Source: a bacterium (GTDB lineage: Bacteria > Patescibacteriota > Patescibacteriia > Magasanikbacterales > GWA2-37-8). Taken from it: 54,442 nt of DNA. The notes beneath the pieces were generated by a model that saw only the letters and a list, made by a program, of their open reading frames with translations, was not told where the DNA came from and did no database searches. The translations under genes and the position numbers were made by a program. The DNA lies in NCBI GenBank assembly GCA_021812425.1, contig JAKANM010000001.1:1-54442 (forward strand). Direction: 5' to 3'. Positions 48,112 to 50,994 of the stretch are shown piece by piece. Each line of letters begins with the position of its first letter. The stretch's first letter is position 1.

Positions 48112-50994
48112 ATGAAAAAATACGATCCAAAAAAAATCGAGAAGAAATGGCAGGAGTTTTGGGATAAAAAGAAAATAAATAAAACTGACAATAAATCGGA
48201 TCAGCCGAAGTATTATATTTTGGATATGTTTCCGTATCCATCCGGCGCCGGCCTCCACGTCGGACATCCGAAGGGTTATATCGCGACGGATGTGGTCGCG
48301 CGGATGAAAATGATGCAGGGGTATAATGTCCTCCATCCGATGGGCTGGGACGCTTTTGGTTTGCCGGCCGAAAATTACGCGATCGCGAATAAAGTTCATC
48401 CGAAAGTTGCAACTTACAAAAATATCGCGACTTTCAAGAAGCAACTCGGCAAAATTGGTTTTACTTATGATTGGTCCAGGGAAATTAATACCACTGATCC
48501 GGAGTATTACCGCTGGACGCAGTGGACGTTTTTGCAAATGTTCCAAAAAGGTTTGGCTTACGAATCATTCGAACCGGTCAACTGGTGTCCGGTCGATAAG
48601 ACCGTTCTTGCGAATGAAGATTTGGAAAACGGTTGTTGTGAGCGTTGCGGCAGTCCGGTCGAGCGGCGACCGATGCGGCAGTGGGTTCTTCGGATTACCA
48701 AATACGCCGACCGCATGCTGAACGATCTCGACAAACTTCCGAAGTGGCCGGAGGCGATCAAGGAGATGCAAAGGAATTGGATCGGGAGGAGTGAGGGCGC
48801 GCAGATCAAGTTTCCCCTTGCCGAAAAAGATAAATTTATTGAAGTGTTCACGACCCGTCCAGACACGCTCTTCGGCGTGACATATGTGGTCTTAGCGCCG
48901 GAAAATAAATTAGTCGATGAATTAAAAAATAAAATAAATAATTGGCCGGAGGTTGAAAAATATCTTAATGAAGCGAAGAAAAAATCCGACCTCGAACGCA
49001 CCGAACTTCAAAAAGAAAAAACCGGTGTGAAACTTGATGGAGTATTCGTAATGCACCCAATCACTAGAGAAAAAATCCCGGTTTGGATTGCGGATTATGT
49101 TCTCGCGAGTTATGGCACCGGCGCCGTTATGGCCGTGCCTGCGCATGACGAGCGTGATTACGAATTTGCAAAAAGATATAATTTGCCGATCAAGGAAGTT
49201 ATTCAGCCGTTGGTTACGAGAGAAAAGGGTGAGGATGGTTTTAGGAGAAACATACCTGTCAATGAACGCCACGCCGTGGTGGCGGTCATCAAACATTGGT
49301 CAGAGGATAAATATCTAGGAGTGGAATGGAAAAAAACCGGCTGGAAAGGTTTCGTGATCGGGGGGATTGAGAACGGAGAAAAAGCGGCGGATGCTGGAGT
49401 CAGGGAAATTGTGGAAGAGAGCGGTTACAAAAATGTTAAATTTGTGAGGCCGCTTGGCGGGATTGTCCACGCCCAGTTTTATCAAATGGTGAAAAATCAT
49501 AATCGTCTGGCGCATTTCGAACCGGCGTTGTTTCAGCTTGAGGACGGGGAAATGGTAGAAACTTCCGATGAAGAAAAAAATTTGCATGAATTTAAGTGGT
49601 TGAAACCTGAAGAATTTTCGTCCTACATCACGCATCCGGATATGCAAATTGTTTGGGACAGATTGCAGGGTAATTATTGTTATGGAGGCAATGAAAAAAT
49701 TGACGGGTTCTCGTTGGACGGAATATTGACCGCTTCCAGTGAGTTTGATGGTTTGGCTATCGCCGAAGCCAAAGAAAAAATAGTTGCCGAGCTCGAAAAA
49801 AATCATTTGGGCAAAAAACAAGTAAACTACAAACTTCGTGATTGGGTATTTTCGCGTCAGCGTTATTGGGGTGAGCCGATCCCGATTATCCATTGTGATA
49901 AATGCGGCGTGGTCGCGGTACCGGAGAAAGATCTGCCGGTTGAATTGCCGAAAGTAAAAAATTACGAACCGACCGGTACTGGCGAGTCGCCGCTCGCGAA
50001 TATCGCGAAGTGGGTCAACGTCGAGTGTCCGAAATGCGGCGGCCCCGCGAAACGCGAAACTAACACGATGCCGCAGTGGGCAGGGTCATCCTGGTATTAC
50101 CTCCGTTATATTGATCCGAAAAATTCCAAAGCGTTGGTTGATAAAAAATTAGAAAAATATTGGTCGCCGGTTGATTTTTATGTGGGCGGCGCCGAGCATG
50201 CCACTCGACATTTGATTTACGCTCGTTTTTGGCATAAATTTTTGTTTGATATCGGCGTCGTGAATTACGAAGAGCCGTTTACCCGTCTCCAGAACGTCGG
50301 CCTTATCATGGCCGAGGATGGACGCAAAATGAGCAAACGCTGGGGAAACGTGATTAATCCGGATGACGTAATTCTGAAGTTCGGCGCGGACTCTTTGCGC
50401 ATTTACGAGATGTTCATGGGTCCATTCTCGCAGGCTGTGGCGTGGAGCACGAATGGTATTATCGGCGCGCGCCGTTTTCTCGAAAAGGTTTGGTTTATGC
50501 AGGAGAAACTGGCGGATAGTTTTGAGGCTGATAAAAAATTACTTAATACTCTTCATCAGACCATCAAAAAAGTCAGCGAAGATATTGAGGATATGCGTTT
50601 CAATACCGCTATCGCCAAAATGATGGAGCTTGCAAACGAAATGTCAAAAGCGGAAAAAGTTTCTAAAGAAAATTTTGCTTTGTTTGTTCAGATTTTAGCA
50701 CCCTTTGCCCCTCATTTTGCGGAGGAACTTTGGGCTTCGCTCGGCCATAAGAAATCAATCTTCACCGAGGCTTGGCCAAAATTCGATCCAAAGCTCGCTG
50801 TATCTGAGACATTTACTTTAGCAGTTCAGATCAACGGCAAAATCCGGGATACCATCGAAGTCGAAGCGGAGATTTCCGAAGCGGGCGTGAAGGAATTAAT
50901 AATGAAAAGTGAAAAAGTTCAGAAATGGCTGGAAGGCAAAGAACCGAAGAAAATAATTTATGTGAAAGGGAAGTTGGTGAGCGTGGTAGTTTAG
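48112..50994 (+). CDS. leuS: leucine--tRNA ligase carrying an inserted Nudix domain
   Basis: HVGH, CP1 editing domain [25 protein letters not shown], KMSKR. There is an extra ~170 aa with the Nudix box [23 protein letters not shown] at nt 49360-49428. Confidence 0.95.
   Translation: [960 protein letters not shown]

Follow-up and report, generated by a model that had tools for sequence, protein, structure and literature searches.

What is a Nudix hydrolase doing inside leucyl-tRNA synthetase (LeuRS)? The question is raised by the leuS gene of a Patescibacteria (CPR) bacterium, located in a window of 54,442 nucleotides (the whole stretch of DNA that was analyzed). The 960-residue product is encoded by a single reading frame that is continuous throughout, and it passes the cutoff of the NCBIfam bacterial LeuRS equivalog TIGR00396 (leuS_bact; 1088.7 bits versus a cutoff of 548.4). 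The class I landmarks HVGH and KMSKR, named in a preliminary description of the locus, are both present. LeuRS motifs were also read directly at aa 344–364 (21 residues) and aa 576–591 (16 residues), residue D346 of AHDERD is invariant in alignment A1, and the LeuRS editing domain PF13603 is matched with an E-value of 7e-65. The full-length model aligns with bacterial LeuRS structures with TMt values of 0.76–0.83. Canonical LeuRSs (T. thermophilus, 1h3n and 2bte; E. coli, 4aq7 and 4arc; N. gonorrhoeae, 7nu8) are 35–39% identical to the query and have the same HIGH, KMSKS, Thr-rich, and Asp motifs, as well as the ZN, leucine-specific, anticodon-binding, and C-terminal domains. The synthetic and editing motifs are therefore intact, and the gene product is probably a working bacterial LeuRS.

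The difference from the canonical enzymes lies in the CP1 editing domain. Pfam NUDIX (PF00293) matches aa 401–502 with 41.8 bits (45.7 bits for the insert alone; gathering cutoff of 21.1) and splits the PF13603 match at profile position 145 of 185. Alignment with T. thermophilus LeuRS (1h3n) pairs query residues 1–365 with residues 1–363 and query residues 534–735 with residues 378–580, so that about 170 residues stand in for a loop of about 14 residues. Within CP1, the host site maps to a surface loop (T. thermophilus positions 363/378). A domain nested in the editing domain is not seen in any solved LeuRS structure. The preliminary description had proposed that a complete Nudix domain is nested in frame at nucleotides 49207–49713 (aa 366–534), in place of a short connector. 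The profile match and the continuous frame bear this out, and the borders coincide with those seen in comparison with P0002, a syntenic relative lacking the insert. The Nudix box was found at the position described and is the only one in the window (Table 1).

Table 1. Positions of leuS, its neighbors, and the features of the encoded protein in the window.
Feature	Position	Strand	Basis or remark
fpg/mutM, upstream neighbor (Fapy_DNA_glyco, H2TH, zf-FPG)	47224..48066	+	synteny block common to insert-variant relatives
leuS, bacterial-type LeuRS with nested Nudix cassette	48112..50994	+	ORF; TIGR00396; full model
HIGH signature HVGH (aa 49–52), class I synthetic site	48256..48267	+	H49, G51, and H52 invariant in A1
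Thr-rich CP1 editing motif TTRPDT (aa 247–252)	48850..48867	+	at least 90% conserved in A1
Left anchor, AHDERD (catalytic Asp346) through NLPIKEV	49141..49203	+	conserved; directly precedes divergent tract
Divergent tract (aa 365–566), Nudix cassette and C-terminal CP1 remainder	49204..49809	+	identity drop versus P0001
Nudix fold proper (aa ~383–520)	49258..49671	+	PF00293; model; Foldseek Nudix matches
Nudix box GX5EX7REUXEEXGU (23 residues, aa 417–439)	49360..49428	+	motif search
X-loop aromatic pair F456-Y457, +17/+18 after box	49477..49482	+	aromatic in 137/141 and 133/141 cassettes
K461-x-x-N464-R465, subfamily-specific motif	49492..49506	+	conserved 96%, 94%, and 90%
H492-x3-W496, subfamily-specific motif	49585..49599	+	conserved 89% and 99%
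Query-specific 9-aa linker NEKIDGFSL (aa 527–535)	49690..49716	+	missing from 94–96% of family
Right anchor (25 residues)	49810..49884	+	identity to relatives resumes here
KMSKS loop KMSKR (aa 739–743)	50326..50340	+	invariant in A1
ComEC-like downstream neighbor (DUF4131 and Competence)	51021..52490	+	in same synteny block as fpg/mutM and leuS

Structure prediction was in agreement with the suggestion that the insert might form an autonomous lobe. Modeled alone with AF2, the insert gave a confident Nudix fold (pLDDT of 95.8, pTM of 0.90). Within the full-length model, the Nudix region retained a pLDDT of about 87–95 and was followed by a low-confidence C-terminal linker, NEKIDGFSL, which is the sole segment with a pLDDT below 50. 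The best 50 of 500 PDB matches of the insert model in Foldseek (E ≤ 1e-3) were all Nudix enzymes, with TMt values of up to 0.82. By its modeled fold, the insert is thus predicted to be a self-contained Nudix domain, an alpha/beta/alpha sandwich.

The architecture is not the singular oddity that the locus first appeared to be. The Nudix subfamily of the query is carried by 341 clusters at 50% identity and by at least 223 GTDB species, with essentially no carriers outside Patescibacteria. The LeuRS-Nudix architecture of the query recurs in more than 140 homologues, which come from hundreds of MAGs. Most members occupy the same LeuRS site, and no other aminoacyl-tRNA synthetase (aaRS) acts as host. 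The subfamily uses three or more LeuRS sites in all, including A, C, and E, and a single protein can contain up to three copies. Five other sites are also used for additional cassettes, which many LeuRSs harbor and which are of the Nudix, Ham1/ITPase, HAD, or alpha/beta-hydrolase type; cassette-bearing proteins reach about 1,560 residues. Stand-alone genes of the subfamily also exist, encoding proteins of about 165 residues in contexts unrelated to leuS, including one between thyA and dcd. At locus L019, a free-standing Nudix gene ends 3 nucleotides before a leuS gene devoid of insert. PF00293 is already precomputed on many LeuRS database entries, but the names seen at NCBI and JGI ('leucine--tRNA ligase', 'leucyl-tRNA synthetase', or 'class I tRNA ligase family protein') give annotation users no hint of a second enzyme. 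The preliminary description knew of no described LeuRS-Nudix architecture. Our literature search likewise retrieved no publication on it, but in the databases it is a widespread variant catalogued only implicitly. In a 2026 survey (PMC13114784), PF13603 is classed as insertion-exclusive, and not one instance of it as a host is recorded.

Conservation was analyzed in 141 cassettes that are, in pairwise comparisons, only about 35% identical on average. Within the Nudix box, G417 and G418 (98%), E423 (87%), R431 (88%), E432 (99%), E435 (99%), E436 (100%), and G438 (100%) are conserved; two positions are substituted (E423Q, R431M) in about 10% of the cassettes. Outside the box, residues R386, W406, K461, N464, R465, H492, and W496 are 87–99% conserved, and free-standing homologues retain the same catalytic and pocket residues. 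K461-x-x-N464-R465 is a candidate phosphate or substrate contact. The catalytic box and the pocket residues specific to the subfamily appear to be kept under strong purifying selection, making the cassette most likely an autonomous hydrolase.

The cassette and its host have distinct histories. Identity to the syntenic relative P0001 falls from 90–100% to 20–50% exactly at the borders of the divergent tract, which is flanked on both sides by ultra-conserved LeuRS motifs. In comparison with the syntenic relative L085, amino acid identity is 82–93% for the neighboring genes and 93% for the LeuRS backbone versus 41% for the insert (0.52 at the nucleotide level). Identity at 4-fold sites is 0.67 for the backbone versus 0.32 for the insert, the latter value being based on 22 codons only. 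The two cassettes thus appear more diverged from each other than neutral flanking sites. Very close relatives, P0002 among them, lack the cassette in LeuRSs that are otherwise 84–86% identical, LeuRSs with and without the insert are interspersed, and a Mantel test of insert against backbone distances was not significant (r = 0.07). These comparisons show that the history of the cassette is uncoupled from that of LeuRS: even among close relatives, the cassette is acquired, lost, and exchanged for another. The swaps of the tract between NLPIKEV and the 12-residue motif on its right are most plausibly explained by homologous recombination, with the two motifs as anchors. Searches for terminal inverted repeats or target-site duplications at the insert borders revealed only short chance repeats, and no carriers of the cassette were found among phage contigs.

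The structures nearest to the insert are Ap4A/Ap6A hydrolases (including 3i7u from Aquifex and 1vc8, Ndx1 from T. thermophilus), mycobacterial MutT1/Rv2985, DIPP, RppH (4s2y from E. coli), and decapping Nudix enzymes such as AvrM14 (8dp8). The query shares with this group the fold, the box, and the X-loop aromatic about 17 residues past the box. It differs by its own motifs (R386, W406, KxxNR, and Hx3W) and by being embedded in another enzyme, the members of the group being free-standing or terminally fused. Identity to these fold neighbors is only 16–21%, a level at which substrate assignment is notoriously unreliable, and every NCBIfam equivalog cutoff was missed, including those of the RppH models NF001936 (28.4 versus 118 bits) and NF001938 (21.3 versus 116 bits) and of MutT1 (12.7 versus 475 bits). 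The likeness to M. smegmatis MutT1 is accordingly only generic. A conserved X-loop Tyr located about 16–18 residues past the box marks ApnA hydrolases (PMC5389931, summarizing Dunn, 1999). F456 and Y457, at +17 and +18, are aromatic in 97% and 94% of the cassettes, respectively, although the Tyr rule is a correlate rather than a proof.

Together, these observations lead us to favor, with a probability of roughly 60%, a model in which the cassette is an autonomous nucleotide-polyphosphate hydrolase that is tethered to LeuRS as a scaffold and exchanged by recombination. The Nudix domain, belonging to a CPR-specific subfamily, would sit self-contained in the CP1 surface loop and act on ApnA/Np4N-type substrates or on non-canonical NTPs ('house-cleaning'). 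LeuRS would provide a permissive and always-expressed scaffold, and the Nudix domain would add no new leucine-proofreading step. Autonomy and the scaffold role are most likely in view of the stand-alone paralogues, the gene adjacency at L019, the use of multiple sites, and the co-occurring cassettes. Nudix (MutT-type), Ham1 (RdgB-type ITPase), and HAD are superfamilies known for sanitizing nucleotide pools. All three are found as CPR LeuRS cassettes, and the location of a paralogue between thyA and dcd is in keeping with such a role. House-cleaning hydrolases are normally independent cytosolic enzymes, whereas several are here threaded into the loops of one synthetase.

A functional link between the two enzymes was proposed in the preliminary description: clearing of adenylates or ApnA in cis, or a novel editing module. 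Spelled out, the Nudix domain would hydrolyze by-products of the LeuRS synthetic site, such as Ap4A or Ap3A formed from Leu-AMP and ATP, or mis-activated adenylates, and would thereby provide a tethered sink for alarmones or adenylates, or an additional proofreading step. The fusion to leuS, together with the adjacency at L019, amounts to a Rosetta-stone-type link, and the subfamily occurs almost exclusively inside LeuRS. The ApnA component of the proposal retains some support from the ApnA hydrolases found among the structural neighbors and from the conserved aromatic X-loop. Genomic context nonetheless appears to argue partly against clearing of Leu-AMP or ApnA in cis and against a new editing module: paralogues stand alone in contexts unconnected with leuS, very close relatives lack the cassette, and the multiple sites and copies do not suggest one precise active-site geometry. 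The Ham1 and HAD cassettes are unrelated to adenylate or aaRS chemistry. Aminoacyl-adenylates are acyl-phosphates lacking a nucleoside diphosphate-X moiety and are thus atypical Nudix substrates. Finally, all LeuRS editing residues are retained, so there is no editing deficit to compensate. We consider cis-acting clean-up rather unlikely.

A role in conflict or immunity is improbable. According to this entirely inferential idea, the cassettes would detoxify LeuRS-directed nucleotide mimics (aminoacyl-adenylate analogues of the agrocin-84/TM84 or microcin-C type) or degrade nucleotide signals in an arms race involving hosts, epibionts, or phages. The cassettes behave as is typical of such systems: they are present in some genomes and absent from others, divergent alleles replace one another at a fixed site, and different hydrolases are combined in arrays. 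A natural adenylate-mimic toxin does target LeuRS, and a dedicated immunity LeuRS is known, with 3zgz and 5ah5 among the structural matches. The latter enzyme, AgnB2, also combines an aaRS with a function directed at a small molecule, but confers agrocin-84 immunity by its active site and has no added domain. In the NCBIfam family 'ileS_w_GNAT' (NF040702), a precedent for an aaRS with a possible detoxifying domain, GNAT is appended to IleRS, whereas the Nudix domain is nested in CP1. Nothing ties the cassette to any inhibitor. The one match to PADLOC defense models, candidate PDC-S07, is weak and generic for Nudix (17.9 bits, E = 4e-4), no phage contig carried the cassette, no consistent toxin or defense genes were present near the loci examined, and the pocket residues, far from diversifying, are strongly conserved.

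It is still less probable that the domain acts on RNA ends, removing in the manner of RppH or NudC a 5′ pyrophosphate or an Np4N or NAD cap from LeuRS-bound RNA, be it precursors of tRNA-Leu or other RNAs. LeuRS does bind RNA, the RppH models are the best NCBIfam matches, E. coli RppH is in the Foldseek list, and the decapping enzymes AvrM14-A/B and Dcp2 are the best PDB sequence matches of the insert. However, all these scores are far under the family cutoffs, and the 5′ end of the mature tRNA acceptor is a monophosphate left by RNase P. Stand-alone paralogues and Ham1 and HAD co-cassettes point instead to small-molecule substrates.

That the domain is a non-catalytic passenger is highly improbable. 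It would then be an in-frame insertion, selfish or neutral, or a purely structural or tRNA-binding lobe, tolerated by a permissive loop. Close relatives do without the cassette, and the loop accepts unrelated Nudix subtypes and, in addition, an alpha/beta-hydrolase. As for inteins, the insertion is in frame in a conserved region of an essential gene, patchy, uncoupled in its history, and open to precise loss. Unlike inteins, it is not removed from the mature protein, in which it forms a folded enzyme domain that appears to be under purifying selection; Pfam detected no Hint/intein or homing-endonuclease domain in the LeuRS protein or the insert, and no homing mechanism is evident. Catalytic and pocket residues that are near-invariant in cassettes only about 35% identical, and that free-standing homologues keep, would be unexpected for a neutral passenger.

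That the fusion arose only in assembly or annotation (from a chimeric contig, which conserved flanks could in principle seed in metagenome-derived sequences, or from a frameshift-fused neighboring gene) is effectively refuted by the occurrence of the exact 960-residue protein on six contigs from separate assemblies (including NCBI GCA_027341455.1 and ENA ERZ27237554), of P0017 on four contigs and P0021 on three, by the many homologues of the same architecture, by the continuous frame, and by flanks that differ by about 12% in nucleotides between the relatives compared, so that long k-mers would not bridge them.

The favored model, a tethered autonomous hydrolase, leaves room for a bolder reading that we regard as unlikely, in which CPR LeuRS serves as a platform where hydrolase cassettes are exchanged laterally and behave as 'domain-level mobile elements', with payloads perhaps serving a chemical arms race. 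If so, Nudix, Ham1, HAD, and alpha/beta-hydrolase cassettes would recombine at fixed loops via the ultra-conserved flanking motifs, forming a previously unrecognized class of mobile elements within an essential gene, and their payloads could destroy adenylate-mimic inhibitors of LeuRS or nucleotide alarmones and signals exchanged between epibiont and host. The architecture of bacterial aaRSs is usually regarded as frozen, and catalogues record the LeuRS editing domain as an inserted domain, never as a host. An entire bacterial radiation nevertheless threads active-looking hydrolases into this domain and into five other loops of LeuRS. A cassette that evolves independently of its host offers a natural setting in which to study how inserted domains originate and spread and how an essential enzyme tolerates them, and makes testable the physical coupling of alarmone or house-cleaning chemistry to aminoacylation in nucleotide scavengers with minimal genomes.

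The leuS ORF encodes a bacterial-type LeuRS (1088.7 bits against TIGR00396 for a cutoff of 548.4), whose synthetic and editing motifs showed little or no variation across an alignment of 68 relatives. The NUDIX model scored above the Pfam gathering threshold of 21.1 bits both with the whole protein (41.8 bits) and with the insert alone (residues 366-534; 45.7 bits), and interrupted the match to the editing-domain model PF13603 at position 145 of its 185 positions. Alignment with the LeuRS of T. thermophilus paired residues 1-365 and 534-735 of the query with residues 1-363 and 378-580, respectively, indicating that approximately 170 residues stand in place of a 14-residue loop inside the editing domain, CP1. 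The preliminary description of a Nudix domain located in frame inside LeuRS was thus right in every detail, with respect to the ORF, the motifs, the NUDIX match, and the coordinates of the box, and is borne out by the T. thermophilus alignment. The query LeuRS is bifunctional in appearance, combining an intact editing site with a nested Nudix domain conserved at its catalytic positions.

Features of the query LeuRS and insertion sites in CPR LeuRSs (sites are numbered on the insert-free relative P0002)
Feature	Position	Strand	Remarks
leuS ORF	48112-50994	+	960 aa
HIGH signature HVGH	aa 49-52		present in query LeuRS
Thr-rich editing motif TTRPDT	aa 247-252		present in query LeuRS
Editing Asp within AHDERD	D346		present in query LeuRS
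Nudix box [23 protein letters not shown]	nt 49360-49428		canonical; sole Nudix box of the window
KMSKS loop KMSKR	aa 739-743		present in query LeuRS
Site A	ref ~207/212		1-2 further Nudix copies
Site B	ref ~237/253		Ham1/ITPase or Ser-hydrolase
Site C	ref ~375/383		site of the query insert
Site D	ref ~449/450		alpha/beta Ser-hydrolase
Site E	ref ~490-499		HAD or Nudix
Site F	ref ~528/534		

A chimeric assembly was ruled out since the identical 960-aa protein was found, with the same neighbors, on six contigs from separate assemblies. The flanks of the compared relatives differed by approximately 12% in nucleotides, making k-mer chimeras implausible. Across the 5' half of the cassette (window 49150-49600), the GC skew rose to 0.39-0.44, compared with 0.05-0.2 in the leuS flanks, and the GC content of this half (approximately 0.45) was unchanged with respect to the flanks. 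In the window, Rfam and tRNA searches detected just tRNA-Met and tRNA-Glu, both distant from the leuS locus. A 1357-aa ORF (13952-18025, plus strand) adjoins a 1163-aa ORF at 9864-13355.

Residues 364-538 were modelled by AlphaFold2 from an alignment of 41 cassettes with a mean pLDDT of 95.8 and a pTM of 0.90. Together with the NUDIX match, this model upholds the assignment of the insert to the Nudix fold and predicts that the nested domain is autonomous and well folded. In the model of the full-length query (pLDDT 87.6, pTM 0.78), the Nudix region reached approximately 87-95, the sole segment below 50 was 524-528, where a 9-residue linker begins, and the remainder superposed on bacterial LeuRS structures with TMt values of 0.76-0.83. 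The linker NEKIDGFSL (window 49690-49716, aa 527-535), of low model confidence, is specific to the query and missing in 94-96% of the family; the nearest cassette relatives carry in its place another extension with SGC/AGC. In Foldseek, the insert fell among Nudix enzymes (16-21% identity); closest to it were an E. faecalis MutT/Nudix protein, mycobacterial MutT1/Rv2985, Aquifex Ap4A hydrolase, T. thermophilus Ap6A hydrolase, DIPP/NUDT3-4, the AvrM14 decapping effectors, E. coli RppH, and CT771. Sequence-profile matches in the PDB concurred, although they were weak (best 1e-7), and no NCBIfam equivalog cutoff was approached by the insert (28 bits for RppH versus 118). The Nudix cassette is a distinct subfamily.

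PF00293 was present on most of the best 120 LeuRS relatives retrieved by a full-length search, and those named by source all belonged to Patescibacteria/CPR (Moran-, Vogel-, and Magasanikbacteria, Paceibacterota, and Parcubacteria). With the insert alone as the query, a word-indexed homology search returned no match; an exhaustive HMMER search returned 341 cluster representatives (50% identity) at E ≤ 1e-3, including 189 at E ≤ 1e-10, and the listed matches of at least 700 aa that could be mapped were all LeuRSs. An insert of approximately 155 aa occupied the query's site in 143 of the 163 retrieved proteins that had both flanking anchors. Scanning GTDB species representatives with a profile built from a 15-sequence subset of the 41-cassette alignment matched at least 223 genomes; the best 80 of these matches were CPR MAGs, 53 of which displayed the exact site according to strict motif criteria. 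LeuRS-Nudix is thus widespread in Patescibacteria and forms a CPR-wide family. Several GTDB records with CPR-type LeuRS-Nudix genes (loci L002, L030, L038, L045, L047, and L054, and many 'Saccharibacteria' TPA records) bear the titles Gammaproteobacteria, Methanosarcinales archaeon, Nanoarchaeota archaeon, or Saccharibacteria. These titles are probably automatic mislabels or the result of bin contamination, and a true presence outside Patescibacteria is conceivable.

No description of the architecture was found in the literature searched, which included a comprehensive review of the Nudix clan, where neither tRNA nor synthetase is mentioned, and a survey of domain insertions from 2026 that classes PF13603 as insertion-exclusive and records no case of it serving as a host (PMC13114784). 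The names seen in NCBI and JGI were only 'leucine--tRNA ligase', 'leucyl-tRNA synthetase', and 'class I tRNA ligase family protein'. Since PF00293 is annotated on many entries, the databases hold the architecture implicitly. The preliminary interpretation is supported in part: the LeuRS with a nested Nudix domain is apparently new and unpublished, but it is a widespread variant rather than a singular one.

The mean pairwise identity between site-C cassettes was only approximately 35% (n = 141). The Nudix box was nevertheless conserved in these 141 cassettes (G417/G418, 98%; E423, 87%; R431, 88%; E432 and E435, 99%; E436 and G438, 100%), as were positions characteristic of the subfamily (R386, 96%; W406, 87%; K461, 96%; N464, 94%; R465, 90%; H492, 89%; W496, 99%). 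Retention of these residues at such low identity suggests an enzyme keeping a single catalytic function rather than a decaying passenger. Aromatic residues were found at positions +17 and +18 past the box, within the X-loop, in 97% and 94% of the cassettes, respectively. In ApnA hydrolases, the X-loop harbors a substrate-stacking tyrosine (PMC5389931). Approximately 10% of the site-C cassettes (e.g. those of P0014, P0050, P0061, P0067, and P0079) belong to a subtype (GGPEEEQT...ARMEILEETGY) in which the first Glu of the box (E423) is replaced by Gln and the box Arg (R431) by Met, Ala, or Thr; E432, E435, and E436 are kept. The activity of this subtype may be altered.

Distances between inserts did not correlate with distances between backbones, i.e. 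LeuRSs minus their inserts (Mantel r = 0.07, a value reached by 105 of 999 permutations), and, for backbone pairs at least 80% identical, insert identity was bimodal, from 16% to 89%. In sliding windows, flanks 90-100% identical up to the borders gave way to 20-50% identity from approximately residue 352 to 565, followed again by 90-100%. For the query, the comparison with its relative P0001 (locus L085) is decisive. The two loci have a common synteny (IF2-Trx-Fpg-LeuRS-ComEC-methyltransferase-lactamase_B), with 82-93% identity for the seven neighboring genes including leuS and 87-93% for the six flanking genes. The LeuRS backbones were identical at 93% of amino acids, 0.88 of nucleotides, and 0.67 of 4-fold sites, versus 41%, 0.52, and 0.32 (n = 22 codons) for the Nudix tract. 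Rapid divergence in situ of a relaxed domain was rejected for this pair because the insert is more diverged (0.52 for nucleotides and 0.32 for 4-fold sites) than the neutral sites of the flanks (0.67), which makes divergence in place impossible and implies a deeper, separate ancestry. The argument is weaker for the pair P0017/P0021, whose genomes are more diverged.

The cassette nearest to that of the query, found in P0025, was 70% identical for a backbone identity of just 52-61%. P0001 additionally harbors a Ham1 cassette at site B, and a third syntenic relative, P0002, is insert-free and approximately 84% identical where the two proteins align (84.8% in the N-terminal and 83.8% in the C-terminal part). 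Insert-free LeuRSs were interspersed among insert-bearing ones by backbone similarity, indicating repeated loss or gain. Thus, the cassette turns over laterally and is exchangeable, its history being uncoupled from that of the host LeuRS. The divergent tract runs between ...[20 protein letters not shown] on one side and [25 protein letters not shown] on the other, and neither repeats nor transposon-like ends were found at the cassette borders. An intein was rejected, as Pfam detected no Hint or homing-endonuclease domain in the query. The simplest mechanism of exchange would be homologous recombination anchored in the ultra-conserved flanking motifs. At the P0002 locus (L083:1444-3916, JBBTSL010000136.1), a DGR-like pair, comprising bAvd (143 aa, minus strand) and an RVT_1 reverse transcriptase (315 aa), lies between fpg and leuS together with a 186-aa ORF that had no Pfam match; in the window, leuS follows fpg with no intervening gene.

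Mapping onto P0002 revealed six recurrent insertion sites in CPR LeuRSs. With these insertions, LeuRSs reach lengths of as much as 1,558 aa, and 315 domains of the query's Nudix subfamily were detected across 259 retrieved proteins. The giant LeuRSs P0029 (1558 aa), P0007 (1518 aa), P0092 (1398 aa), and P0151 (1330 aa) contain three to four nested hydrolase cassettes, with at most three Nudix domains plus a Ser-hydrolase, HAD_2, or Ham1; in P0151, a complete Ham1 domain (197 bits) directly precedes the anticodon-binding domain.

The subfamily also comprises free-standing proteins of 161-173 aa, which were 35-48% identical to the query insert over the aligned stretch in the GTDB scan. In locus L019 (JANMMK010000110.1), a free-standing 161-aa Nudix (492-977), with an N-terminus resembling the N-linker of nested cassettes, stops 3 nt before an insert-free leuS (980-3220). 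The stand-alone and nested forms are related by fission or fusion. Such a gene was sought beside the insert-free leuS of P0002 and P0080 and was absent, the arrangement being confined to L019. Elsewhere, stand-alone copies occur in settings unrelated to leuS: one paralogue (L032:1396-4135) belongs to a nucleotide-metabolism cluster encoding thymidylate synthase, an AAA_28 ATPase, the Nudix, and a dCTP deaminase-like protein, and another copy follows purL. At L063:2121-3552, in a record labelled 'Clostridia bacterium', a 287-aa ORF preceded by a CYTH gene combines an editing-domain fragment (PF13603 profile positions 82-144) with a Nudix domain and possibly represents a leuS that was split or reduced to a remnant.

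Ham1 and HAD are classic nucleotide house-cleaning enzymes. We propose that the nested Nudix would be an autonomous pyrophosphohydrolase acting on nucleotide-polyphosphates, either ApnA/Np4N or non-canonical NTPs, and that LeuRS would provide a permissive scaffold with constitutive expression. The structural neighbors, the aromatic X-loop, the stand-alone homologues, and the Ham1 and HAD co-cassettes point to this activity. A role of an exchangeable cassette in conflict or immunity would fit the pattern of cassette turnover, and a toxin that targets LeuRS is known (3zgz and 5ah5 were among the structural matches); however, just a weak generic match to a defense system was obtained, and the pattern used to query IMG/VR identified no phage carriers of the cassette. 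Clearing in cis of Ap4A or Leu-AMP made by LeuRS is possible, but the cassette is dispensable in close relatives, occurs at multiple positions in varying copy number, and is accompanied by unrelated co-cassettes, and acyl-adenylates are not typical Nudix substrates. The behavior of the domain as an exchangeable cassette is the most interesting and testable aspect of LeuRS-Nudix.
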